From: Shigella phage Sf25
Sequence record: MF327009
Length of the DNA: 64,000 nucleotides
Reading direction: 5' to 3' (one strand)
Numbering within the stretch: position 1 is the stretch's first letter; each line of letters starts with the position of its first letter. This document shows positions 1 through 61,547 of this stretch, one piece after another. The notes beneath the pieces were generated by a model. It ran no database searches. It saw only the letters and a program-made list of their open reading frames with translations, and was not told the DNA's origin. A program made the translations under genes and the position numbers.

Positions 1-825
1 TTAAATATTTGACCAGACTTTGTTTGCAGAGAAACGTTTTCCTTTTGAAACGAACTGCTGAAGTGGCATCAACACAACGTTCGCCCAGTCTTTCGGGGCG
101 ATTTCAACAAGGCTACCCATAATATTACCAGGTATATATGCCTTAATCATTTGGTCTGCACCCCTAAATCCTTTCACTTGACTCCAATCAATTTTTAATT
201 TCGTTTTATTAGTAATAGTAGGTGTATTTGCATATTGCTTTAAAAGCTCTTCTAGGAATTGCTGACGAGCTTTAGGTGGAATATAGTGCAAGTTCAATCC
301 GTACATTAAATTATGTTTACCTAAACCAAGATAAATTATCAAAGGAAATTTATCCCAGTAAGGAAGAGTTTCCTTGTGTTTAGCGTCATAAGCAAAAGCA
401 TATATTCGTCCCGGCTGCGGGCGAACAACTTTATGTCCTTTTACTTGCTTAATAGTTTCAGCAAACCATTTTCTGGTTTTATTATTAATTGCTGCACCTT
501 CATTACGAATTTTATCGCGCAATGTTTGTCTGAATGAATTTATCATAAGCAGTTGTCTTTCTTGCTTATTGAGTTTATTCATTGGTTTTGATTCAAGCTT
601 TTGAATCTTTTCAGCTGTTTTAATTCCTGAAGCATATTTTGACATTGCTGAAGTAAACGTAGAGTATTTGATTCCTCTTTCTTCAGCAAATTGCTTTCCT
701 GTCATTCCTTTTGCTTTGGCCTTTTTATATTCAAGACCTATTTGAATCCATTTCTTTTCGTTTAATGATTGCTTAACCTTTGGAACTTGGGGAGTGCTTT
801 CATTAATTATTTGAAAAATAGCCAT
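1..825 (-). CDS. 2: gp2 DNA end-protector protein
   Basis: 274-aa ORF; length and position upstream of 4-53-5 match T4 gene 2. Confidence 0.8.
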
Positions 826-1277
826 TATGCCCCCTTAAAGCCAAGAGCTCGTAATCCATCTTCTGTTAGAATTCTAAATTTTATTCCACGCTTTTCAGCT
901 AAAGCTTGCGCTGCTTTCCATTTGTCGGTATTAACGGAATATGTATAAATTTCATTCATAAATCTTTTCTTCGCTGCAGTTGTTAGATGTGCTGGTTTAA
1001 CTGGTGGTTGTGTTTCTTTTTTAGGTTTTATTTCAATAAAAAATTCTTGTCCAGAAGAATCTTTCATCCAAATATCCATGAAGTATCTACGTTTTTTCCC
1101 TTCTGCATTACAAAAATAAGGAATTACTGCTGTTTCACTACCCCATGCAATAATTTCTGGATTTTTATCTAACCATTCAAAAAAGAATTTTTCCCAATTT
1201 GATCTATACGTAATTTTTTTAGGGTCACCTCTATACTTTGATATATTTTTAGGAACCCATTTTCCAGAATATGCCAT
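825..1277 (-). CDS. 4: gp4 head completion protein
   Basis: 150-aa ORF, start/stop overlap with gene 2; T4 synteny and length. Confidence 0.8.
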
Positions 1278-1288
1278 TGGATTCTCCT

Positions 1289-1296
1289 TATAAATA
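1289..1296 (+). promoter_or_regulatory. T4-type late promoter TATAAATA upstream of gene 53
   Basis: exact TATAAATA about 30 nt upstream of ATG at 1325. Confidence 0.6.
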
Positions 1297-1324
1297 GATA
1301 ATATATTTATAAACAGGAGGGCCC

Positions 1325-1915
1325 ATGCTCTTTACATTTTTTGATCCGATTGAATATGCGGCCAAAACGGTGAATAAAAACGCGCCGACTATTCCTATGA
1401 CAGATATTTTTAGAAACTATAAAGACTATTTCAAACGTGCTCTTGCGGGATACCGCTTACGTACTTATTATATTAAAGGTTCACCACGCCCGGAAGAATT
1501 AGCAAATACTATATATGGAAATCCACAGTTGTATTGGGTTTTATTGATGTGTAATGATAATTATGATCCATATTATGGATGGATTACTTCACAAGAAGCT
1601 GCTTATCAAGCATCTATACAAAAATACAAAAACGTAGGTGGAGACCAAATAGTATATCATGTAAATGAGAACGGTGAAAAATTTTATAATTTAATATCAT
1701 ACGATGATAATCCATATGTTTGGTATGACAAAGGTGATAAAGCTAGAAAATATCCTCAATATGAAGGAGCACTTGCTGCGGTCGATACGTATGAAGCTGC
1801 TGTTCTTGAAAATGAAAAACTTCGTCAAATAAAAATAATAGCAAAATCAGACATTAATTCATTTATGAACGACCTTATACGTATAATGGAGAAATCTTAT
1901 GGAAATGATAAGTAA
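1325..1915 (+). CDS. 53: gp53 baseplate wedge subunit
   Basis: 196-aa ORF immediately upstream of gene 5; T4 length/synteny. Confidence 0.85.
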   Translation: MLFTFFDPIEYAAKTVNKNAPTIPMTDIFRNYKDYFKRALAGYRLRTYYIKGSPRPEELANTIYGNPQLYWVLLMCNDNYDPYYGWITSQEAAYQASIQKYKNVGGDQIVYHVNENGEKFYNLISYDDNPYVWYDKGDKARKYPQYEGALAAVDTYEAAVLENEKLRQIKIIAKSDINSFMNDLIRIMEKSYGNDK

Positions 1916-3626
1916 TAACCTTAATTGGTTTGTTGGTGTTGTTGAAGATAGAATGGACCCATTAAAATTAGGTCGTGTTCGTGTTCGTGTGGTTGGTCTG
2001 CATCCACCACAAAGAGCACAAGGTGATGTAATGGGTATTCCAACTGAAAAATTACCATGGATGTCAGTTATTCAACCTATAACTTCTGCAGCAATGTCTG
2101 GAATTGGAGGTTCTGTTACTGGACCGGTAGAAGGAACTAGAGTTTATGGTCATTTTTTGGACAAATGGAAAACTAACGGAATTGTCCTTGGCACGTATGG
2201 TGGAATAGTTCGCGAAAAACCGAATAGACTTGAAGGATTTTCTGACCCAACTGGGCAATATCCTAGACGTTTAGGAAATGATACTAACGTACTAAACCAA
2301 GGCGGTGATGTAGGATATGATTCCTCTTCTAATGTTATTCAAGATAGTAACTTAGACACTGCAATAAATCCTGATGATAGACCATTATCAGAAATTCCAA
2401 CTGATGATAATCCAAATATGTCAATGGCTGAAATGCTTCGCCGCGATGAAGGATTAAGACTAAAAGTTTATTGGGATACCGAAGGATATCCGACAATTGG
2501 TATTGGTCATCTTATCATGAAGCAGCCAGTTCGTGATATGGCCCAAATTAATAAAGTTTTATCAAAACAGGTTGGTCGTGAAATTACCGGAAATCCAGGT
2601 TCTATTACAATGGAAGAAGCGGTAACTTTATTTGAACGTGATTTAGCTGATATGCAACGTGACATTAAATCACATTCTAAAGTTGGCCCAGTTTGGCAAG
2701 CGGTTAATCGTTCTCGTCAAATGGCATTAGAAAATATGGCATTTCAGATGGGTGTTGGCGGTGTAGCTAAATTTAACACAATGTTAACTGCTATGTTAGC
2801 CGGAGATTGGGAAAAAGCATATAAAGCTGGTCGTGATTCATTGTGGTATCAACAAACAAAAGGCCGTGCATCTCGTGTTACCATGATTATTCTTACAGGG
2901 AATTTGGAATCATACGGTATTGAAGTGAAAACACCGGCTAGGTCTTTGTCTGCAATGGCTGCTACTGTAGCAAAGTCTTCTGACCCGGCTGACCCTCCTA
3001 TTCCGAATGATTCGAGAATTTTATTTAAAGAACCTGTTTCTTCATATAAAGGTGAATATCCGTATGTTCACACAATGGAAACTGAAAGCGGTCATATTCA
3101 GGAATTTGACGATACCCCGGGACAAGAACGATACAGATTAGTTCATCCAACTGGAACTTATGAAGAAGTATCACCGTCAGGAAGAAGAACAAGAAAAACT
3201 GTTGATAATTTGTATGATATAACCAACGCTGATGGTAATTTTTTGGTAGCCGGTGATAAAAAGACTAACGTCGGTGGATCAGAAATTTATTACAACATGG
3301 ATAATCGTCTTCACCAAATAGATGGAAGCAATACGATATTTGTGCGTGGCGATGAAACTAAGACAGTTGAAGGTAATGGAACTATCCTAGTTAAAGGCAA
3401 TGTTACTATTGTAGTTGAAGGTAATGCTGACATTACAGTTAAAGGAGATGCTACCACTTTAGTTGAAGGAAATCAGACTAATACAGTAAATGGAAATCTT
3501 TCTTGGAAAGTTGCTGGGACAGTTGATTGGGACGTTGGTGGTGATTGGACAGAAAAAATGGCATCTATGAGTTCTATTTCATCTGGTCAATACACAATTG
3601 ATGGATCGAGGATTGACATTGGCTAA
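1899..3626 (+). CDS. 5: gp5 baseplate hub subunit / tail-associated lysozyme (cell-puncturing spike)
   Basis: 575 aa; T4-lysozyme-like segment (EGLRLKVYWDTEGYPTIGIGHL); C-terminal VxGxxxV beta-helix repeats. Confidence 0.95.
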   Translation: MEMISNNLNWFVGVVEDRMDPLKLGRVRVRVVGLHPPQRAQGDVMGIPTEKLPWMSVIQPITSAAMSGIGGSVTGPVEGTRVYGHFLDKWKTNGIVLGTYGGIVREKPNRLEGFSDPTGQYPRRLGNDTNVLNQGGDVGYDSSSNVIQDSNLDTAINPDDRPLSEIPTDDNPNMSMAEMLRRDEGLRLKVYWDTEGYPTIGIGHLIMKQPVRDMAQINKVLSKQVGREITGNPGSITMEEAVTLFERDLADMQRDIKSHSKVGPVWQAVNRSRQMALENMAFQMGVGGVAKFNTMLTAMLAGDWEKAYKAGRDSLWYQQTKGRASRVTMIILTGNLESYGIEVKTPARSLSAMAATVAKSSDPADPPIPNDSRILFKEPVSSYKGEYPYVHTMETESGHIQEFDDTPGQERYRLVHPTGTYEEVSPSGRRTRKTVDNLYDITNADGNFLVAGDKKTNVGGSEIYYNMDNRLHQIDGSNTIFVRGDETKTVEGNGTILVKGNVTIVVEGNADITVKGDATTLVEGNQTNTVNGNLSWKVAGTVDWDVGGDWTEKMASMSSISSGQYTIDGSRIDIG

Positions 3627-4150
3627 TATACTTCCAATGAGCGCTGATTTAGGAGAATCCATGGAAGGTTCTTCTATCGACGTCACCTTTACCGCTCAAT
3701 TAGAAACAGGTGAAACGTTAGTATCTATAAATATAACTAGTTACGAAGAAACTCCTGGGGTTTTAGTAGAAGAAAATCGTTTATATGGAACGTATGAATC
3801 TGTATTTGGATTTGGAAATGATGCGTTGAAATATCGTTTAGACGTTGGTGGTGATTGGACAGAAAAAATGGCATCTATGAGTTCTATTTCATCTGGTCAA
3901 TACACAATTGATGGATCGAGGATTGACATTGGCTAATATACTTCCAATGAGCGCTGATTTAGGAGAATCCATGGAAGGTTCTTCTATCGACGTCACCTTT
4001 ACCGCTCAATTAGAAACAGGTGAAACGTTAGTATCTATAAATATAACTAGTTACGAAGAAACTCCTGGGGTTTTAGTAGAAGAAAATCGTTTATATGGAA
4101 CGTATGAATCTGTATTTGGATTTGGAAATGATGCGTTGAAATATCGTTTA
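3531..4150. repeat. perfect tandem duplication, 2 x 310 bp (3531-3840 and 3841-4150)
   Basis: identical sequence at offset 310; spans gene 5 3' end and gene 5.1 5' end. Confidence 0.95.
3601..3936 (+). other. chimeric ORF created by the duplication: first 80 codons of 5.1 fused in frame to last ~30 codons of gp5
   Basis: 112-aa ORF; C-terminus VGGDWTEKMASMSSISSGQYTIDGSRIDIG is identical to the gp5 C-terminus. Confidence 0.7.
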
Positions 4151-4465
4151 GATAATGAATTTAAAACCGCTGCTTCATGGGAAGACCTTCCAACTGATTC
4201 TAATACTCAGTTATATTTATGGAAAGCTCCTCAAAACCTCCAGAAGACATTCACTTACGAAGTAACATTAATATATGACTACCAAGAACAAGGTGAATCT
4301 GGAGGTTCTGGTAGTAATTCTAGGTCATCTTCTGATACTACTGAACCGACAGATCCTCCTGCTCTAGTAAGAAAAACTCTCGTTAAAAATTATACTAAAA
4401 CTATAGTTGGAAATTGGAGTCGTTGGGCTAATAAACTGAGAAGCTACGTGTATGAGAGGCCATAA
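3911..4465 (+). CDS. 5.1: gene 5.1-like protein (intact second copy)
   Basis: 184-aa ORF from ATG 3911, follows gene 5 as in T4. Confidence 0.7.
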   Translation: MDRGLTLANILPMSADLGESMEGSSIDVTFTAQLETGETLVSINITSYEETPGVLVEENRLYGTYESVFGFGNDALKYRLDNEFKTAASWEDLPTDSNTQLYLWKAPQNLQKTFTYEVTLIYDYQEQGESGGSGSNSRSSSDTTEPTDPPALVRKTLVKNYTKTIVGNWSRWANKLRSYVYERP

Positions 4466-4691
4466 ATGTCAGGATTAAGTTATGATAAGTGTGTTACTGC
4501 TGGCCATGAAGCGTGGCCTCCAACAGTCGTGAATGCTACAAATTAAAAAGCCATATGAAACACATGGCGGAGTGACACAACCTAGAACTTCTAAGGTATA
4601 TGTCACTGGAAAGAAAGCTGTTCAAATGGCTGATCCAATATCATGCGGTGATACTGTGGCTCAGGCATCATCTAAAGTATTCATTAAATAG
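4466..4691 (+). pseudogene. 5.4: gene 5.4 (PAAR-like tail spike tip) disrupted by internal ~68-bp deletion and frameshift
   Basis: ATG at 4466 encodes [26 protein letters not shown] then TAA at 4544; the C-terminal 48 codons (KKPYETHGG...[16 protein letters not shown]) continue in another frame to TAG 4689-4691. Confidence 0.75.
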
Positions 4692-4699
4692 GATTTAAA

Positions 4700-6682
4700 A
4701 TGGCAAATACCCCTGTAAATTATCAATTAACAAGAACAGCAAATGCTATTCCCGAGATATTCGTCGGGGGTACGTTTGCTGAAATAAAACAAAACCTCAT
4801 TGAATGGCTTAATGGCCAAAATGAATTTTTGGATTATGATTTTGAAGGCTCAAGATTAAACGTTCTGTGTGACCTTTTGGCTTATAATACGCTGTACATT
4901 CAACAGTTTGGTAATGCTGCTGTGTATGAAAGCTTTATGCGTACTGCTAACTTACGAAGTTCAGTTGTTCAAGCTGCACAAGATAACGGATATTTACCTA
5001 CTTCAAAATCCGCTGCGCAGACCGAAATTATGTTAACATGCACCGACGCATTGAATAGGAATTACATTACTATTCCTCGCGGAACTCGCTTTTTAGCATA
5101 TGCAAAAGATACTTCTGTTAATCCATATAACTTCGTTTCTACCGAAGACGTTATTGCCATTCGTGATAAAAATAACCAATATTTTCCGCGTTTAAAATTG
5201 GCCCAGGGACGTATAGTAAGAACTGAAATCATTTATGATAAATTAACACCTATTATCATTTATGATAAAAATATTGATAGAAACCAGGTTAAATTATATG
5301 TTGATGGAGCGGAATGGATTAACTGGACGAGAAAGTCAATGGTTCATGCTGGTTCAACATCAACGATTTACTATATGCGTGAAACTATTGATGGAAACAC
5401 TGAATTCTATTTTGGCGAAGGTGAAATTTCTGTTAATGCTTCTGAAGGAGCTTTGACCGCTAATTATATCGGAGGTCTTAAACCTACCCAGAACTCTACG
5501 ATTGTTATTGAGTACATCAGTACTAACGGTGCAGATGCGAATGGCGCAGTCGGATTTTCATATGCAGATACATTAACAAATATAACTGTCATCAATATTA
5601 ATGAAAATCCAAACGACGACCCAGATTTTGTCGGAGCAGATGGCGGCGGTGATCCAGAAGATATTGAGCGTATTCGCGAATTGGGTACTATTAAACGCGA
5701 AACCCAGCAACGCTGCGTAACTGCGACTGACTACGATACATTCGTTTCAGAGAGATTTGGTTCTATTATTCAAGCTGTTCAGACTTTCACTGATTCTACT
5801 AAACCTGGGTATGCATTTATTGCTGCTAAACCTAAATCAGGATTGTATTTAACTACTGTGCAACGTGAAGATATTAAAAATTATCTCAAAGACTATAATT
5901 TAGCTCCTATTACGCCATCAATTATTTCTCCTAATTATCTTTTTATTAAGACTAATTTAAAAGTCACATATGCTTTAAATAAGCTGCAAGAATCCGAACA
6001 GTGGCTCGAAGGTCAAATAATTGATAAAATTGATCGTTATTATACCGAAGATGTAGAAATTTTTAACTCGTCTTTTGCCAAGTCTAAGATGTTGACATAT
6101 GTAGATGATGCAGATCATTCTATCATTGGTTCATCAGCGACAATTCAAATTGTTCGTGAAGTACAAAACTTCTATAAAACACCTGAAGCAGGTATTAAAT
6201 ACAATAATCAAATAAAAGATCGTTCTATGGAATCTAATACGTTTTCATTTAATTCTGGACGAAAGGTTGTAAATCCTGATACTGGTTTAGAAGAAGATGT
6301 ATTATATGACGTTCGTATAGTATCAACAGACCGAGATTCTAAAGGAATCGGTAAAGTTATTATTGGTCCATTTGCTTCTGGCGATGTTGCAGAAAATGAA
6401 AACATTCAGCCGTATACAGGCAACGATTTTAACAAATTAGCAAATTCTGATGGACGCGACAAATACTATGTTATCGGTGAAATAAATTATCCAGCTGACA
6501 TGATTTATTGGAATATCGCTAAAATTAATTTAACATCTGAAAAATTTGAAGTTCAGACTATTGAATTATATTCTGACCCAACTGATGATGTTATCTTTAC
6601 TCGCGATGGTTCACTGATTGTATTTGAAAATGACTTACGTCCACAATACTTAACTATCGATTTGGAGCCTATATCACAATGA
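4700..6682 (+). CDS. 6: gp6 baseplate wedge subunit
   Basis: 660 aa; T4 length and synteny. Confidence 0.9.
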   Translation: MANTPVNYQLTRTANAIPEIFVGGTFAEIKQNLIEWLNGQNEFLDYDFEGSRLNVLCDLLAYNTLYIQQFGNAAVYESFMRTANLRSSVVQAAQDNGYLPTSKSAAQTEIMLTCTDALNRNYITIPRGTRFLAYAKDTSVNPYNFVSTEDVIAIRDKNNQYFPRLKLAQGRIVRTEIIYDKLTPIIIYDKNIDRNQVKLYVDGAEWINWTRKSMVHAGSTSTIYYMRETIDGNTEFYFGEGEISVNASEGALTANYIGGLKPTQNSTIVIEYISTNGADANGAVGFSYADTLTNITVININENPNDDPDFVGADGGGDPEDIERIRELGTIKRETQQRCVTATDYDTFVSERFGSIIQAVQTFTDSTKPGYAFIAAKPKSGLYLTTVQREDIKNYLKDYNLAPITPSIISPNYLFIKTNLKVTYALNKLQESEQWLEGQIIDKIDRYYTEDVEIFNSSFAKSKMLTYVDDADHSIIGSSATIQIVREVQNFYKTPEAGIKYNNQIKDRSMESNTFSFNSGRKVVNPDTGLEEDVLYDVRIVSTDRDSKGIGKVIIGPFASGDVAENENIQPYTGNDFNKLANSDGRDKYYVIGEINYPADMIYWNIAKINLTSEKFEVQTIELYSDPTDDVIFTRDGSLIVFENDLRPQYLTIDLEPISQ

Positions 6683-32834: not shown

Positions 32835-33036
32835 TTTTCACCTTTTTATTGATATGTCTTTTTCTATAGACAACTTTTTCTCGAGTTTCAAATTTATTCT
32901 TAGCAGTCATAGCTCGAGCCCATAATACAGCCACTTCTTTCGCCTGTAAGTTTAATTCACGAGCAATTTCAATGAATGACTTTCCAGACTCATGAAGAGT
33001 AAACACCACAACCTCAGTTCTCATAATCAATCTCAT
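32821..33036 (-). CDS. small helix-turn-helix-like protein (T4 24.3 position)
   Basis: 71-aa ORF; FIEIARELNLQAKEV resembles an HTH. Confidence 0.5.
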   Translation of the reverse strand: MRLIMRTEVVVFTLHESGKSFIEIARELNLQAKEVAVLWARAMTAKNKFETREKVVYRKRHINKKVKNGTV

Positions 33037-33326
33037 GTTATCGAGTTGGTGCCATTATATACATCATTTTCTGATTGTGTTTTGTGTGCTTTCAAAATGA
33101 AGAAAGGGGCCGAAGCCCCTTATGTAATACAGCCACTTCTTTCGCCTGTAAGTTTAATTCACGAGCAATTTCAATGAATGACTTTCCAGACTCATGAAGA
33201 GTAAACACCACAACCTCAGTTCTCATAATCAATCTCATGTTATCGAGTTGGTGCCATTATATACATCATTTTCTGATTGTGTTTTGTGTGCTTTCAAAAT
33301 GAAGAAAGGGGCCGAAGCCCCTTATG
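32923..33326. repeat. perfect tandem duplication, 2 x 202 bp (32923-33124 and 33125-33326)
   Basis: identical at offset 202; covers the 5' 38 codons of the small HTH gene, its upstream region and a GGGGCC-GAAG-CCCC hairpin. Confidence 0.95.
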
Positions 33327-33327
33327 A

Positions 33328-34392
33328 TTATGGATAGGTATAGATGATACCAGTTTCTAAAGCAGTTTTATGAATGATGTATCCATTACGTGATTCTTGA
33401 ACATCAACTTCTGGATAGTCTTTCATCATCTTCTGAAGCGTATAACGATGCAAGTAGTATTTACTATCTGGATCGTCAGTTTTCCAATCTTTACCTTCTT
33501 CGGTCATTTTTTGGATTTCATCCATAACCCACCAACCACACCAGATGTAAGCTGAAGTACGATGTGGAAGAGGATGAACATAAGGTAATTCACCTTCTGG
33601 CTCTGGAGCAACTTTATCAGTTACCTGAACTTGACCTTCCGCCGTAATAGTTTTGCTATCATAATCAGCAGCAGTAACAGTTGCAGTAACTTCAATAGTT
33701 TGACTTCCAATAGATGAGGTATCAATGGTATATACATTAGTTGACCCTTCTACAGGAGAAGAATCTTTCTTCCATGAATACGCAATTTGCGCTTCTTCTG
33801 GAGCATCAGTGACATTAGCAGTAAATGTAGCCGAAGCATCTTGTTGAACGTTAATAGAAGGAGGAGTCAATGTAACCTGTGGATTCATTGTCTTCTTATT
33901 AACTGTTAATGATACTTCATTCGAAGTAACTTCCTTTTCATTGTAATTTTCAGCAGTTACTTGGGCTACGCATTTAATTCTTTTTACTCCACTTGTAGTT
34001 GGAGTATAGCTAAATGTAGAGTTAGTTTCTCCACCAACTTGTGAATCATCTACATACCACTGATACGTAGCAGATGCGCCTGATGGCTGCGAAGCCAAAG
34101 CAGCGGTAAATTCAACAGCTGTTCCGATTACTCCTTCCGGAGGACTATTAGGAGTTACGGCTAAGGTAGTCGTCTGTGTCTTATTTTGAACTGTGATAGT
34201 TGTACTAATTTCAGCTGTTTCGGGACTACTATCGGCAACTTGATTTGTTGCAACTACTTTAATAGTCTTTTGACCGGCAGGTCCTTTTAATACATAACTA
34301 AAAGTTGCTTCAGCTCCATCTTGTGGAACATCATCTACAGTCCAAGCATATGTAATAGGTCCATCTCCAGTTTGACCACTGGGCGTAGCAGT
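33328..34392 (-). pseudogene. hoc: hoc (highly immunogenic outer capsid protein), 5'-truncated, no start codon
   Basis: Hoc reading frame open for ~354 codons (FTATPSGQTG... to ...GIIYTYP) but bounded upstream by an in-frame TAA at 34396-34398; no ATG/GTG/TTG before an internal TTG at 34096-34098. Confidence 0.7.
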
Positions 34393-35015
34393 AAATTAAT
34401 GTAATAAATTAAGCTAAATAATGTTTGGTGTGCAGAAGCATGCTCAAAACTAGTTGGGTGAGATTTCCAATCCGGAGTTTCAGCGATCCATTGATAAATC
34501 CACCAAGGAACAGTACAGAATCCTGGATTTTTTCCAATCAACTGAAGATTCGGGCTAAAGTTTTCCGGAAGAGTAAATACAGACGGCTTTTCAGATTCAA
34601 TAATCTCAGCTACAGCCTGTTCGAATTTTTCTTCAACAAAAGGAGTATCTTCAATCAAAACATCGGTATTTTCAGGAATTTTATCCGTTTCTACTACTTC
34701 AATTTTAATGTCAGATTTAACTGGAGAATCAATCAAAAGTGCTGCTTCTGGATTGACTTCTTCATCGTCATATTTTAATCCCTCTGCAGCATCAGCAGCA
34801 TCAATTAAGTCTTTAATAGATAACCCATCAGTCTCTGGCATAGGTTCACTAGCGAGCTTCTGGAGAGCTTCTTCAATATCAACAACGATATTATCAAAAG
34901 ATTTATTCTTTTTGACCTTTATACCAAACTGTTCAGCATATTCAGCTAATTTAGCTTTAGCTTCTTTGTTATCATCAAGAGCCTTCAGCTCTGCAATATA
35001 ATCTTTATCTATCAT
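34335..35015 (-). CDS. inh: Inh, inhibitor of prohead protease
   Basis: 226-aa ORF at the T4 inh position; its 3' end overlaps the hoc frame by ~56 nt. Confidence 0.7.
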   Translation of the reverse strand: MIDKDYIAELKALDDNKEAKAKLAEYAEQFGIKVKKNKSFDNIVVDIEEALQKLASEPMPETDGLSIKDLIDAADAAEGLKYDDEEVNPEAALLIDSPVKSDIKIEVVETDKIPENTDVLIEDTPFVEEKFEQAVAEIIESEKPSVFTLPENFSPNLQLIGKNPGFCTVPWWIYQWIAETPDWKSHPTSFEHASAHQTLFSLIYYINLLLRPVVKLEMDLLHMLGL

Positions 35016-37084: not shown

Positions 37085-37309
37085 TTATACAACTCTCATA
37101 TGCATATCAATGCCCATATCTTTAGAATAAAAATATTCATCAAGATATCCGGCAAATTTTCCTTTAATATAAAGGACATCTTCACCGCATGGATGGTCGG
37201 CCAGGATACGAATATCCTGACGCTTAAGATTATGCTTTTTCATTAAGAATTGAATTTCCGTTTCAAATTCTTCTTCATAATTAAAAGCATCATCAATGCT
37301 ATATCTCAT
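37085..37309 (-). CDS. hypothetical protein (T4 uvsY.-1 position)
   Basis: 74-aa ORF directly downstream of uvsY. Confidence 0.55.
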   Translation of the reverse strand: MRYSIDDAFNYEEEFETEIQFLMKKHNLKRQDIRILADHPCGEDVLYIKGKFAGYLDEYFYSKDMGIDMHMRVV

Positions 37310-45393: not shown

Positions 45394-45424
45394 TTTGTGT
45401 TCCTCATGTTATGTCAGTAAGATT

Positions 45425-45453
45425 ACTATAACACAACACGAGGGACTTGTAAA
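45425..45453 (-). promoter_or_regulatory. sigma70-like early promoter (-35 TTTACA, 17-nt spacer, extended -10 TGtTATAGT)
   Basis: reverse complement of 45401-45454 reads GTTTACA...TGTTATAGT; the 54-bp element is identical to 61491-61544. Confidence 0.65.
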
Positions 45454-47511
45454 CTACATCTTGAACTTTTTAGACATTCCGTTGATGTTAACCAAAGAAG
45501 CCAAGATTTGAGAAACTTCGTTTTCCTCTTCTTTTGATTCTTCTACGAGGAATTGATTAAACCCAGCCATTGGACGAACTTCGCCAGTTTCCATTAGATG
45601 ATCGCCATCATATACCGATTCTTCTAATTGTTCAGAAGGAGGAACGATTGTGCCTTCGATTAGATACTTGTTATAAGCAGTTTCTTTCATCATGTACGTG
45701 CTTACTTTATTAATCTTCAACAAAATTCCACGCGGTAGAATAACTTCAGCTTCTGATGGAAATCCTGATAAATGACCTGGAACGATAACTTTGATTCGCT
45801 CAGCTCCTTTAATTACCATACCCACGCTAGTTTCAGCATCTTCATTAGCATATGTAGAATGACTACCCATATGCATCAAATCTTCTGCATCAATGGAACC
45901 TTCTCCTTCACCAGAAAATACTGCGCCGGAATCATCTAGAGCCATATAGTTTTTACCATGCTCACCGAAGATATTTGGTTTAAGCGATGTTGATACGAAG
46001 TTCTTGAAATAGAACATTTTATTTTCAATGTTATGACGCAAAGTTTTAAAGGTAACTTCTTGCCCACGATAAAGAGTAGTTCCTGGAGGAAGAACTGAAC
46101 CTTTAGCAAATGCAGAATCCAACGTCTCGATGTGTTTAATAGCTCGTTCCATATATTCTTCACGGGTAGAATCAGGTTTACCTAAAAGGAACGAGTTCAT
46201 TTCAACATATGAATCTGCACAATAATCTTCAATTACATCAGACTCAGCCTGAGTTAATCCTTTTGGAGTTACTTCAGTGCTTGCGTATTCATATGCCTGA
46301 GCGGCAGATTCATTAATCAATTTATAAATGCCATTCATGACAAATTGAATAATAGCTGTCTTTTCATCTGGTGTAGCTTTAGAACCTTTAACTAAATCAT
46401 TGATAATTTTCTTAATAACATCAAAGCTATTAGAAATATTAATGTCAGCAAGATCGCTTAAAATTTTATCAGTTTTATAATCAAAGAATTCTTTATTCTT
46501 TAAATATTCTTGAGAACCTTGATATGTTATATCGCTCTGCAACTTGATAGATGGATCACGTAAACGTGCATGGGCTAATGCAATATGATTTCGGAAACTT
46601 TCTAGTTCATAATCGTTAGATTTAAAACGAGAAGCACTTCTCATACCACCGATAGCTCCTTTGCTAAAGTTTGAACCAATCTGAATAACGCCAGAGTTCA
46701 TCGGACCTTCTGCTTTATATACCGGAACTTTAGATTCAAACTCTTGATATTTCTTAGCAGCGAAGCTATCACCCTGAAGTGAAGCATCAACAGTAGAATA
46801 TTGAGCTTGTGCTGCTAATCGACGACTAATTTTAGTTTTCTGAATAACAGCTTGATCCGTGCGCTTATCATTTTCTAAAGCAATAGAAGCAGCAACAGCG
46901 ACAGCTTTAGGAACAGCATTACCTGTTTTAACGTCTACATAAACATCACCAACCTTTGATTCAACTTTTGTGAATAACTCAGTTGAAATAGGAGGTACAC
47001 CTGGAATGTCTTCTAAATTGGCATTTTTACGGTAAACCATAATATATGCATATTTCTTATCATAGTCCCAGATTTCCTTTAAAAGAACATATCGACCTGC
47101 TCCTTTAGTACGTACTAAACGGTCAGCAATAACTTGCATTTGACGAGCAGCGCCATTTGTTTTACTCTTTAGTACGCGGAATAAGCATGCATCAATTTTA
47201 TACTGTTTCATTGTTTGAAGAGCAGTATCAAAAACAGCATTAATGACGCCAATTGGATTTCCACCCAAGTTTTTAAGCTTGACTAACGATAATTTCTCGT
47301 TGACACCTATCATTACGATATGCATCATTTTGTCGCCTGGCTTAACGTTTTTATTCGTATCACCGCCAGAGGTGTATGTACAAAATCTAAATCCAGGAAG
47401 CACGCTTTCTTCACCGGCTTGAATAGCAAAAATTTGTGGTATTTTATGCTTAGGATTTAAGTTAACAACCGGCGCCGAAGCGCCGTCAAATAATTCTGTA
47501 ATAAGTTCCAT
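45454..47511 (-). CDS. Alt-family ADP-ribosyltransferase paralog
   Basis: 685 aa; N-terminal MELITELFD shared with Alt; ART motifs YRGQ, FVSTSL, SEAEVILPRG. Confidence 0.85.
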   Translation of the reverse strand: MELITELFDGASAPVVNLNPKHKIPQIFAIQAGEESVLPGFRFCTYTSGGDTNKNVKPGDKMMHIVMIGVNEKLSLVKLKNLGGNPIGVINAVFDTALQTMKQYKIDACLFRVLKSKTNGAARQMQVIADRLVRTKGAGRYVLLKEIWDYDKKYAYIMVYRKNANLEDIPGVPPISTELFTKVESKVGDVYVDVKTGNAVPKAVAVAASIALENDKRTDQAVIQKTKISRRLAAQAQYSTVDASLQGDSFAAKKYQEFESKVPVYKAEGPMNSGVIQIGSNFSKGAIGGMRSASRFKSNDYELESFRNHIALAHARLRDPSIKLQSDITYQGSQEYLKNKEFFDYKTDKILSDLADINISNSFDVIKKIINDLVKGSKATPDEKTAIIQFVMNGIYKLINESAAQAYEYASTEVTPKGLTQAESDVIEDYCADSYVEMNSFLLGKPDSTREEYMERAIKHIETLDSAFAKGSVLPPGTTLYRGQEVTFKTLRHNIENKMFYFKNFVSTSLKPNIFGEHGKNYMALDDSGAVFSGEGEGSIDAEDLMHMGSHSTYANEDAETSVGMVIKGAERIKVIVPGHLSGFPSEAEVILPRGILLKINKVSTYMMKETAYNKYLIEGTIVPPSEQLEESVYDGDHLMETGEVRPMAGFNQFLVEESKEEENEVSQILASLVNINGMSKKFKM

Positions 47512-51309: not shown

Positions 51310-51573
51310 TGTTCATCCTTCAGAGTTTGATTTACAGCTCTATTATAAATCAATTCATCATTAAGCTCAGTTAAAGACCTATGATATGTAGTTCTAACTT
51401 TATTTCCTTGCATCCAGTGCTTGATATAAATGAAACCTTGCTCTACACATTTTTAAAAATTCGTTCGTCTTTTTGAGCTCGGAATTCTGGATTGCATCTA
51501 AAGAATTGATTTACGTGACCGTAATCACGCGTAGTATTACCTTCATTTTCATAAATAGTGTGAACGACAAACA

Positions 51574-51779: not shown

Positions 51780-52412
51780 TTATAGCTTTTTCACTATCAA
51801 AACTTTCTTTATTTTCCTTCGGTGAAAAAGTTTATTTTCTACATCATTCCATGTATAAACTCGCTGCGCAGTTTTTGGAATATTGTCACGCTCTCCTCGA
51901 GCCATCCAATAAACAGGAACATTTAATATTTCACTCGCATGATCGCAATGATGCGCGAGATCGTCAATATAACAAATTACGTTATATTTCTCTTTTGCCT
52001 TTTTGAACAACTCTTCTTTTGAAGAATCATGACCACACATCATTACTTCCGAGAAGGCGCCAGGAAAAAGAGCATTCAAATTAAATTGACGATTCAACAG
52101 AGCGTCAATAGAATCACCCAATGCTGTAACAGCTACAAAATTATAATCTTCTTTTAGTTTGTTAATTACACACAGGGCATCTTTATATGGAGACAAGTAA
52201 CGAATAAAATCTGATCGATTATATTTTTCAATTAACTTGACACCAAGTTCTTCATCACAATTAAAGAGTTTACCTGGAGAAATAAATTTCTCATCTTGGA
52301 TCATTTTTAAAATATGTTCTAACGGAAGATTATATTTCTGAGCAAAATAAGGAAGACCTGATTGCCAGCTTAAACAAACTCCATCAATATCAGTTAAAAT
52401 AGTAGGCTTCAT
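51780..52412 (-). CDS. HAD-superfamily hydrolase-like protein
   Basis: 210 aa; N-terminal motif I LTDIDGV (DxDG). Confidence 0.65.
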   Translation of the reverse strand: MKPTILTDIDGVCLSWQSGLPYFAQKYNLPLEHILKMIQDEKFISPGKLFNCDEELGVKLIEKYNRSDFIRYLSPYKDALCVINKLKEDYNFVAVTALGDSIDALLNRQFNLNALFPGAFSEVMMCGHDSSKEELFKKAKEKYNVICYIDDLAHHCDHASEILNVPVYWMARGERDNIPKTAQRVYTWNDVENKLFHRRKIKKVLIVKKL

Positions 52413-54465: not shown

Positions 54466-54807
54466 TTATGCTTTCTGCTTACCAAAACGAGAAGCATCAT
54501 CTCGAAGAACCGCACGTGCTCGGCGCATGATCTTCTCAACAGTTTGATTGATACGAGAGTTCGACCCACGCTTGTAGCCAGCGCGTTTAGAATCACCAAC
54601 TTTCTTTTCAACTGCTTTCTTTGCTTTAGCTTGTTTTTTCTGCTTACCAAAACGAGAAGCATCATCTCGAAGAACCGCACGTGCTCGGCGCATGATCTTC
54701 TCAACAGTTTGATTGATACGAGAGTTCGACCCACGCTTGTAGCCAGCGCGTTTAGAATCACCAACTTTCTTTTCAACTGCTTTCTTTGCTTTAGCTTGTT
54801 TTGCCAT
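54466..54807 (-). CDS. small lysine/arginine-rich protein carrying an in-frame 55-codon tandem duplication
   Basis: from ATG 54807: MAKQAKAKKAVEKK...RFGKQK then KQAKAKKAVEKK...RFGKQKA; 113 aa, about 58 aa without the duplication. Confidence 0.65.
   Translation of the reverse strand: MAKQAKAKKAVEKKVGDSKRAGYKRGSNSRINQTVEKIMRRARAVLRDDASRFGKQKKQAKAKKAVEKKVGDSKRAGYKRGSNSRINQTVEKIMRRARAVLRDDASRFGKQKA
54472..54801. repeat. perfect tandem duplication, 2 x 165 bp (54472-54636 and 54637-54801)
   Basis: identical at offset 165, in frame within the basic-protein gene. Confidence 0.95.
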
Positions 54808-55095
54808 TATAAATTCTCTTTTAAATGAAAATGCAGGACTTATTGGCATTGCCTGCGCAAGCCCTCAAGGGGAACATAGGTTTTTGGATATTTAACGACC
54901 AGGATAACCATAAACCCGTCATCATACCACCAAGACTTACACAGATAACACTTTTCTGACGCATGATAGTAACATTCAAGAGGTACACCGTAAAACTGCC
55001 GGGGTCTTGAAACTATAATGATTCGCAAATCATTAATCAGACAGTTCGACGGCTCCTCGATTTAGCTCACACTAAGGCAGTGAATCTCCAATAAA

Positions 55096-55428: not shown

Positions 55429-55734
55429 CTAACAGGTAACGAATTTTTGTTTAATTTCTTTTGGCTGCTTAAGACCCAGAGCTACAAAAGGGTGTGGAAC
55501 GTTTCGAATTTGACCAACTGGAAGAGAAGTCAAATCACCAACTTCACAGAAACCTTCAGGAACATCAGGACCAACAGAGTGAACTACACACAGTTCAGGA
55601 ACTTCACCTTGAACACGTTTACCGATAATAAGTCCTGATTCTGTAACTTCTTCATCACCGGCTTGTGCAGGTTCAGAAACTAAAATAACATATTCACCGA
55701 CAGCACGAATTGGTAGCTGTTGTACTTCAGACAT
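55429..55734 (-). CDS. 31: gp31 co-chaperonin (GroES analogue)
   Basis: 101-aa [25 protein letters not shown]...; T4 synteny. Confidence 0.8.
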
Positions 55735-57485: not shown

Positions 57486-58006
57486 GTTGATCCCAGCTCC
57501 TTACTTTCAACGTTTTTAACTAATTTGACAGAAACTAATTCGGCATCTTGGGTAATCATTACCGGGCCTTCTTCATACTCTTCAAGATATTCTAGAGCTT
57601 TCTTTTTAGCTTCTTCCTTCGTATCAGTTTGAGCATAGATATAGAACATACAACCAGTAATACCTACTACTTTCCACTTAATTTCTTTATCAGTTTTAAT
57701 TTCAAATTTACTGATAGAGTCATCTTTTTGAACTTCTTCGAAAAAATAATATTCTGACATATAAGTAATTGAAAATAACGGGCTATCTTTATAAGATTCG
57801 CCCATTACATCAACAGCTTTATACCAGCAGTCATCAATTTCACGTTTAATGCTAATAACATTTTTCGCAGAATCTATTTTTACTTTAAATGAATTTTCCC
57901 CAATAAACTTGGCAATTCGTTTATTAGCCCCGCAAGTTTCATTAAAAATATCTTTATATCCAGCTTTAAAGCGATAAACCTTATCTTCTTCAAACCATTT
58001 GCTCAT
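57479..58006 (-). CDS. hypothetical early protein
   Basis: 175-aa ORF preceded by an early promoter. Confidence 0.55.
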   Translation of the reverse strand: MSKWFEEDKVYRFKAGYKDIFNETCGANKRIAKFIGENSFKVKIDSAKNVISIKREIDDCWYKAVDVMGESYKDSPLFSITYMSEYYFFEEVQKDDSISKFEIKTDKEIKWKVVGITGCMFYIYAQTDTKEEAKKKALEYLEEYEEGPVMITQDAELVSVKLVKNVESKELGSTC

Positions 58007-60196: not shown

Positions 60197-60639
60197 TTAT
60201 CCTCTTTTAACTCTTGACGATAATAACATATCATAGTTTTCTGATCATGTACATATCGTTTTACATCATTAAGCCAAATGCGAAATTCCTGGGAATCTTC
60301 AAATGGCATACCGACCCAAGCTTTACCATCAATAACTTTAACTTGCCAGGATAGTTTAGCTTCATCGTATGACTTTATTTGTACTGGCCAATTAGGATGA
60401 ACTGTTTCTTTCTTTACTTCTAGAGGCTTTGTCGAACAACCAACTAGAAGACCAATAGATAATATTACCCAAGCTTTACCATCAATAACTTTAACTTGCC
60501 AGGATAGTTTAGCTTCATCGTATGACTTTATTTGTACTGGCCAATTAGGATGAACTGTTTCTTTCTTTACTTCTAGAGGCTTTGTCGAACAACCAACTAG
60601 AAGACCAATAGATAATATTACTGCTGATAGTTTAATCAT
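60187..60639 (-). CDS. outer-membrane spanin (o-spanin lipoprotein) carrying an in-frame 51-codon tandem duplication
   Basis: 150 aa; signal peptide with lipobox LLVGC; residues ILSIGLLVGCSTKPLEV...DGKAWV occur twice in tandem. Confidence 0.7.
   Translation of the reverse strand: MIKLSAVILSIGLLVGCSTKPLEVKKETVHPNWPVQIKSYDEAKLSWQVKVIDGKAWVILSIGLLVGCSTKPLEVKKETVHPNWPVQIKSYDEAKLSWQVKVIDGKAWVGMPFEDSQEFRIWLNDVKRYVHDQKTMICYYRQELKEDKCK
60314..60619. repeat. perfect tandem duplication, 2 x 153 bp (60314-60466 and 60467-60619)
   Basis: identical at offset 153, in frame within the o-spanin gene. Confidence 0.95.
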
Positions 60640-61483: not shown

Positions 61484-61514
61484 CATAAAGTCCTCATGTT
61501 ATGTCAGTAAGATT

Positions 61515-61543
61515 ACTATAACACAACACGAGGGACTTGTAAA
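61515..61543 (-). promoter_or_regulatory. sigma70-like early promoter upstream of alc (second copy of the 54-bp element)
   Basis: 61491-61544 is identical to 45401-45454: -35 TTTACA, 17-nt spacer, TGtTATAGT. Confidence 0.65.
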
Positions 61544-61547
61544 CAGC

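Follow-up and report, generated by a model that had tools for sequence, protein, structure and literature searches.

Gene 5.4 of the spike tip is interrupted by a 68-bp deletion of doubtful authenticity in the sequence record of Shigella phage Sf25

Genomic context

The DNA analyzed here (“the window”) is a stretch of 64,000 nucleotides from the sequence record of Shigella phage Sf25 (MF327009). It is a segment of a Tequatrovirus (T4-like phage) genome and is collinear with Shigella phage Sf24 (NC_042078.1) from the first base; over the first 12 kb of the window, the identity to Sf24 is 99.3%. The annotated gene order in Sf24 is 2, 4, 53, 5, 5.1, 5.4, 6, 7 onwards, and the order 5, 5.1, 5.4, 6 is preserved in the window (Table 1). 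The PAAR-repeat tip of the T4-type tail spike is the product of gene 5.4, located at 4466-4691. In the intact gene 5, the tip of the C-terminal β-helix of gp5 is retained, and it is there that gp5.4 would bind. The DNA of gene 5.1 is 99.8% identical to that of phage SholemSchwarzbard. An AGGA Shine-Dalgarno sequence at 4690-4693 belongs to gene 6.

The backbone was compared with those of other phages. Over positions 1-3841, there are 61 nt differences from Sf24, yet gp5 carries only 3 amino-acid changes. The differences between the window and Sf24 are patchy, mostly synonymous, and common to other natural phages; on these grounds, random in-silico substitution of the backbone was ruled out. 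The backbone is instead a mosaic, with pieces that are nearest to Sf24, SholemSchwarzbard, fPS-90 or KRT47. The window is free of Ns and has no identical counterpart among the records of the phage collection.

Table 1. Coordinates of the genes, remnants and structural changes discussed in the text (positions in the window).
Feature	Position	Strand	Remarks
Gene 5 (spike + tail lysozyme)	1899..3626	+	Intact, 575 aa; 99.5% amino-acid identity to Sf24 gp5 over 1-575
Tandem duplication, 310 bp, perfect	3531-3840 + 3841-4150	+	End of gene 5 / start of gene 5.1; both genes intact
Chimeric ORF from 310-bp duplication	3619..3936	+	About 74 N-terminal codons of 5.1 fused in frame to gp5 545-575
Gene 5.1, second copy, full length	3929..4465	+	Residues 1-178 97% to Sf24; directly upstream of broken 5.4
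5′ remnant of gene 5.4	4466..4546	+	25 native codons (M1-T25), junction Asn codon, TAA at 4544-4546 (translation, alignment)
Deletion junction, 68 bp, gene 5.4	4539..4540 (4539/4540)	+	68 nt lost = Sf24 4231-4298 (equivalently 4230-4297)
3′ remnant of gene 5.4	4542..4691	+	49 native codons (I49-K97, incl. SCGDTVA), TAG 4689-4691
Gene 6 (baseplate wedge)	4700..6682	+	Intact; 100% amino-acid identity to Sf24 gp6
Tandem duplication, 202 bp, perfect	32923-33326		N-terminal 34 codons of 24.3 + intergenic region to hoc stop codon
Deletion, 133 bp, out of frame	34394/34395		Start of hoc + end of inh
Deletion, 29 bp	38817/38818		Divergent gene 26 / gene 51 intergenic region; AGCTCCTTTATTTATCATATTTATAAATA in Sf24 and KRT47
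Tandem duplication, 165 bp, perfect	54472-54801		In frame in 30.9
Deletion, 72 bp	55431/55432		End of gene 31 (55429-55734, minus)
Tandem duplication, 153 bp, perfect	60314-60619		In frame in pseT.2 (Sf24 annotation: Rz-like spanin)

The lesion in gene 5.4

An initial annotation of the window had identified the gene as that of gp5.4, the PAAR-like tip of the cell-puncturing spike. This identity was upheld, as the Sf24 protein is 100% identical to the T4 gp5.4 of PDB entries 4KU0 and 5IV5. As the same annotation had proposed, the interval was aligned to gene 5.4 of T4 (NC_000866 80779-81072, annotated 5.4, PAAR motif); gene 5.4 of Sf24 (NC_042078 4156-4449) was used as a second reference. The reference gene measures 294 nt and is uninterrupted. 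The interval in the window measures 226 nt, and the alignment features a single gap of exactly 68 nt (columns 75-142 of 294); outside of this gap, the DNA is 100% identical to that of Sf24. The gap is a direct result of the alignment, and a chance pattern is excluded. Lost are codons 26-47 and two bases of codon 48, which at the protein level amounts to residues Q26-E48. The initial annotation had given the deletion as about 68 bp (226 versus roughly 294 nt), a figure that proved exact; it had also put the loss at about 24 codons, and the number of residues lost is 23.

The sequence across the deletion junction is GCTACAAATTAAAAAG. The breakpoint (GCTAC[A]AATT) has an ambiguity of 1 nt (A), and longer microhomology is absent. 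Slipped mispairing between direct repeats was considered as the source of the deletion and rejected: a TACA-N-AAA quasi-repeat with copies 66 nt apart predicts an in-frame deletion of 66 nt, and 68 nt were lost.

Translation from the ATG at 4466 yielded the 26 codons of a gp5.4-like N-terminus followed by TAA, as had been described, with the first 25 residues being native. The remainder of the gene had been placed in a different frame that runs to the TAG at 4689; both the frame shift and the stop were confirmed by alignment and translation, and the codon count was corrected from 48 to 49. This 3′ remnant begins with IKKPYE, and its frame is +1 with respect to the 5′ remnant. A 52-codon ORF in the same frame starts at the ATG at 4533, upstream of which no recognizable Shine-Dalgarno sequence was found. 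The sequence as written is a null allele of gene 5.4, from which no functional tip can be produced. The earlier statement that the phage lacks an intact spike tip is borne out for the sequence as written, which encodes none; extended to the phage, it holds only if the record is faithful.

Predicted effect on the PAAR protein

The possible products were scored against the Pfam profile PAAR_motif (PF05488), for which the curated cut-off is 27 bits. Intact gp5.4 of Sf24 and T4 scored 39 bits, the 52-aa ORF 22.5 bits, and a hypothetical joined product of 74 aa 21.1 bits; the 26-aa stub did not match this profile. Both fragments are thus below the family threshold. By descent and by synteny (between 5.1 and 6), the locus is nonetheless a remnant of gene 5.4.

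Intact gp5.4 is a cone of three β-hairpins in which three PAAR-like crossovers give rise to local threefold symmetry, and the hairpin tips are joined at a tetrahedral metal (Fe) site with three His and one Cys as its ligands (PMC12407873). Because gp5.4 has exactly three histidines (14, 46 and 55), we infer that all three must be metal ligands, His46 included. In the window, His46 is lost, and His14 is located in a different ORF than His55 and Cys83. No single polypeptide with three β-hairpins and three PAAR-like repeats is encoded, the remainder being split over two frames; the deleted stretch probably corresponds to the middle PAAR-like repeat. In T4, the H14A substitution by itself abolishes the binding of gp5.4 to gp5 (PMC12407873).

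The deletion does not create a + strand terminator at the lesion. With a Shine-Dalgarno sequence of its own, gene 6 is taken to be translated independently of 5.4. On these two grounds, and on the normal growth of a T4 mutant, 5.4am (PMC12407873), that is described below, a polar effect on gene 6 was ruled out as the principal consequence of the lesion.

Comparison with known spike tips

Four known systems were compared with the locus. The closest is T4 gp5.4 itself (PDB 4KU0, 5IV5; PF05488), whose gene occupies the same locus between 5.1 and 6; the retained DNA in the window is 100% identical to Sf24 5.4. Compared with the T4 gene, the window is without the 68 nt, the frame is broken, residues 26-48 are gone, and no ORF scores above the Pfam cut-off.

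The second is T4 5.4am, which carries an amber codon at position 6 (Mattenberger et al. 2025 preprint, PMC12407873). Its particles are assembled and stable, and they adsorb normally. On ordinary K-12 and B hosts, plaques, burst and plating efficiency are normal. The specific infectivity is about 2.2-fold lower, and in competition there is a fitness cost of about 1.55-fold per cycle. On the deep-rough LPS mutants hldD::Tn10 and rfaC, there is no DNA delivery or growth; added gp5.4 complements the defect (all PMC12407873). The window carries a null allele of the same gene, and by analogy the same phenotype would be expected: tip-less assembled virions, a fitness cost, and a need for a heptose-containing LPS core. 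The two differ in that 5.4am is engineered, verified and suppressible, and the allele in the window is a non-revertible deletion of doubtful authenticity, in an Sf24-like background and represented by sequence only. The drama implied by the initial annotation is reduced accordingly by the T4 result, as gp5.4 is dispensable for assembly and for plating on ordinary hosts (PMC12407873).

T4 relatives of the RB43, RB16 and Lw1 type likewise are without a gp5.4 PAAR tip. RB43-type phages have a large replacement tip gene (orf205w, ca. 690 aa) at the 5.1-5.4 locus (PMC12407873), whereas only remnants of 5.4 are located there in the window, in which a replacement tip gene was looked for and none was found. 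Finally, the type VI secretion system PAAR proteins VCA0105 and c1882 (PDB 4JIV, 4JIW) share the fold and family of intact gp5.4 (E = 1.6e-8 and 1.1e-5). They are not phage proteins, and they are relevant only for the contribution of the deleted segment to the cone.

Occurrence of the allele

A tblastn search with gp5.4 identified the full-length gene in 1373 of the 1374 phage records with a gp5.4 homologue. The sole exception is a partial T4 fragment record that begins inside the gene. With megablast, the 68 nt were present in all of the 30 best matches listed; 29 of these 30 match as 619 nt in two pieces, compared with 551 nt in the window. The string that spans the deletion junction was not found in IMG/VR or in the JGI metagenomes, and the same was true of a backbone-specific stretch of gene 5.1. 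The junction of the 310-bp duplication (Table 1) was not found in IMG/VR, no record in the phage collection contained any of the junctions searched there, and neither the exact gp5, the exact gp29 nor the 52-aa ORF had an entry in the gene-position index. A literature search on Sf24 derivatives returned nothing relevant. As far as these sequence comparisons reach, the 5.4 deletion allele is private to the window sequence.

Further private changes in the window

The whole window was compared with Sf24 and with Shigella phage KRT47. At least eight private, blunt-ended changes that are missing from both were found: four perfect tandem duplications and four deletions, including that in gene 5.4 (Table 1). 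Of those outside 5.4, five (duplications of 310, 202 and 165 bp; deletions of 133 and 72 bp) have no counterpart in the best database matches either; for the 29-bp deletion and the 153-bp duplication, the comparison covered Sf24 and KRT47 only. Over the 5.4, hoc and gene 31 regions, the best matches are split exactly at these junctions. The junction homology is 0-2 nt at every change, and the duplicated copies are identical, with zero differences. All of the duplications (153-310 bp) are larger than all of the deletions (29-133 bp).

The 310-bp duplication precedes the 5.4 lesion. The segment of gp5 that is found in the resulting chimeric ORF (545-575) is the end of the β-helix that is normally capped by gp5.4. 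The duplication also produces a second copy of a late-promoter-like TATAAATA (3726, 4036).

In the hoc region, the start codon and first 21 codons of hoc are lost with the 133-bp deletion, as is the intergenic region; inh loses its last 19 codons and gains a frameshifted tail. The hoc piece that remains (33125-34394) is 91% identical, and its limits are the junctions of the 202-bp duplication and the 133-bp deletion; the flanks are ca. 100% Sf24-like. The 165-bp duplication nearly doubles the 30.9 protein (ORF 54466-54849, 127 aa).

Two deletions affect essential genes. That of 29 bp takes the Shine-Dalgarno sequence of gene 26 and the TATAAATA late promoters between 26 and 51. Through that of 72 bp, gene 31, which encodes a GroES-like co-chaperonin, loses its stop codon and the 10 codons before it (HYKAIPCLYK); the truncated gp31 has 101 aa and ends with ...KFVTC. 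The gp31 tail aligns to residue 110-111 even in the homologues of 37-40% identity among those listed, and at least 80% of gp31 is covered in 1392 of 1393 phage records.

The placement of the changes was also considered. Three of the four duplications have a deletion 0.4-1.1 kb downstream, a pairing with a probability of ca. 0.001-0.01 if the events were independent. None of the eight changes is located in the 28.6-kb block of essential late genes 6-24; under uniform placement, such avoidance has a probability of ca. 0.008. Both probabilities are our own arithmetic.

In addition, two −1 frameshifts in homopolymers were found relative to Sf24 and KRT47, one at 51450 (T6 to T5, in 30.1) and one at 51825 (A6 to A5, in 30.2). 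Either slippage of natural origin in dispensable genes or sequencing errors at homopolymers would account for them.

Origin of the lesion

The reading that we favor, with a probability of roughly 0.55, is that the 5.4 lesion is a defect in how the sequence record was built and does not represent the state of a fit phage. A draft would have been ordered on an Sf24-like reference. Overlapping pieces that were joined untrimmed would have produced the duplications, and small gaps that were closed without being filled would have produced the deletions, that in 5.4 included. Some other non-biological edit, deliberate or accidental, would give the same appearance. The actual phage population would carry an intact 294-nt gene 5.4.

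An artefact is favored over a real mutation because the 5.4 lesion belongs to a class of private, clean changes with blunt junctions. This class appears unfiltered by selection, because the 72-bp and 29-bp deletions damage essential functions (gp31 and gene 26). The eight junctions probably have a common origin. Perfect tandem repeats are unstable and segregate quickly under the very active recombination of T4; four of them fixed within 64 kb are therefore unexpected. Position 1 of the window coincides with position 1 of the Sf24 RefSeq record, even though the backbone is a distinct mosaic, which suggests Sf24 as the reference for the ordering or orientation of the source. The duplication-deletion pairs, the limits of the hoc piece at two of the junctions, and the −1 changes in homopolymers all fit an artefact.

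Several observations weigh on the other side. By analogy with T4, in which gp5.4 is dispensable, a real 5.4 knock-out would be viable. The two intragenic duplications (165 and 153 bp) both preserve the reading frame. The backbone is clean and natural, with mostly synonymous substitutions and no Ns. Common assemblers seldom create internal duplications of 150-310 bp, and this counts against an artefact as well. The avoidance of genes 6-24 would be the pattern expected from purifying selection on real mutations. The placement statistics are ambiguous in this respect: the avoidance points to selection, and the lesions in gp31 and gene 26, together with the pairing, point in the opposite direction.

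The strongest competitor to a defective record, possible and yet the less credible of the two, is that a viable phage has recently lost the function of 5.4 through a genuine mutation. Its virions would assemble with a blunt gp5 β-helix that is devoid of the PAAR tip; to judge from 5.4am, the post-attachment success per particle would be lower, and infection would fail on hosts with deep-rough (heptose-less) LPS. The viability of 5.4am, with its normal plaques, burst and plating efficiency, argues for this possibility, as does its early termination, which at codon 6 is evidently not lethally polar on gene 6 (PMC12407873). In the window, the Shine-Dalgarno sequence of gene 6 is likewise kept, and no + strand terminator is made. 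Most of the other changes either affect genes that are dispensable (hoc, inh, 30.1, 30.2, 30.9, pseT.2) or spare the genes on both sides, and genes 6-24 are free of changes. However, 1373 of the 1374 relatives are intact, and null alleles therefore do not persist in nature. The truncation of the gp31 C-terminus and the loss of the ribosome-binding site of gene 26, along with late promoters beside it, are hard to reconcile with a fit phage, and the four perfect repeats, the blunt junctions and the way in which deletions accompany duplications resemble one non-biological process.

A very improbable extension of a genuine mutation is that the record is faithful throughout. Among ca. 1,370 sequenced relatives, the phage would then be the sole Tequatrovirus that is viable and tip-less by nature; its changes would have arisen by a real mutational process, for example template switching during replication, and the chimeric ORF, with the gp5 surface that is capped by gp5.4, could have a functional link to the loss of the tip.

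Still weaker are two proposals in which a PAAR protein would be made from the broken gene. Programmed recoding, either by a +1 frameshift at ACA-AAT-TAA or by a bypass like that of gene 60, would yield one protein of about 74 aa; it is, on the evidence of the codons at the junction, close to refuted. In its favor, translational bypassing is a known feature of gene 60 in T4-type phages, both native parts would be connected by a +1 shift at the junction, and an ACA codon of the downstream frame (4560-4562) is a conceivable match for the ACA at 4538-4540. However, ACA-AAT-TAA contains no slippery motif or heptamer, the tRNA-Asn on AAU cannot re-pair on AUU, AAU and AAC codons are absent from the downstream frame, and the sole matching codon pair is not adjacent to the stop codon. 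The gene is uninterrupted in all relatives, which leaves no conserved signal. The joined product, at ca. 21 bits on PAAR_motif, would lack His46 as well as one hairpin of the three on which the pseudo-threefold symmetry depends, and the H14A substitution alone already eliminates gp5 binding (PMC12407873).

The second proposal, scarcely credible as well, is a split PAAR protein, in which the stub and the 52-aa C-terminal ORF are made separately and reassemble as a cone on gp5. Re-initiation is conceivable, as the ATG at 4533 is 11 nt upstream of the stop codon of the stub. The lack of a Shine-Dalgarno sequence upstream of 4533 stands against it, as do the sub-threshold Pfam scores of both fragments; with 23 residues missing from both pieces, the middle repeat and one metal ligand would be lost regardless. 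Rescue by frameshift, bypass or re-initiation was ruled out on the sequence, since every product would be without the 23 essential residues.

Implications

The authenticity of the 5.4 lesion is doubtful. The record carries several structural anomalies, some of them in essential functions, and functional conclusions are premature, including those that concern the 5.4 deletion. If the deletion were real, the T4 results imply that it would be viable, mildly deleterious and biologically unsurprising. Such a natural PAAR spike-tip knock-out in a T4-like phage of Shigella/E. coli would offer a ready test of the recent result that the importance of the tip is limited to fitness and to hosts with truncated LPS. 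It would also have modest value for host-range work and for the choice of therapeutic phages. No new kind of element or mechanism is present here, and the phenotype of such a lesion is already published.

Other features of the backbone

Three further features were noted in the comparison with Sf24 and KRT47. A 54-bp sequence is present at two distant intergenic sites, 45401-45454 and 61491-61544 (near alt.-3 and near rnlA/alc). The same repeat is located at both sites in Sf24, which marks it as a natural dispersed repeat. A stretch of ca. 514 bp (57490-58003) is shared by the window and KRT47, where the gene is annotated as similar to Sf23 gp63, and is missing in Sf24; from its distribution, it is classed as ordinary mosaic gene content. 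A difference of ca. 100 bp from Sf24 at 37089-37093 is likewise common to KRT47.
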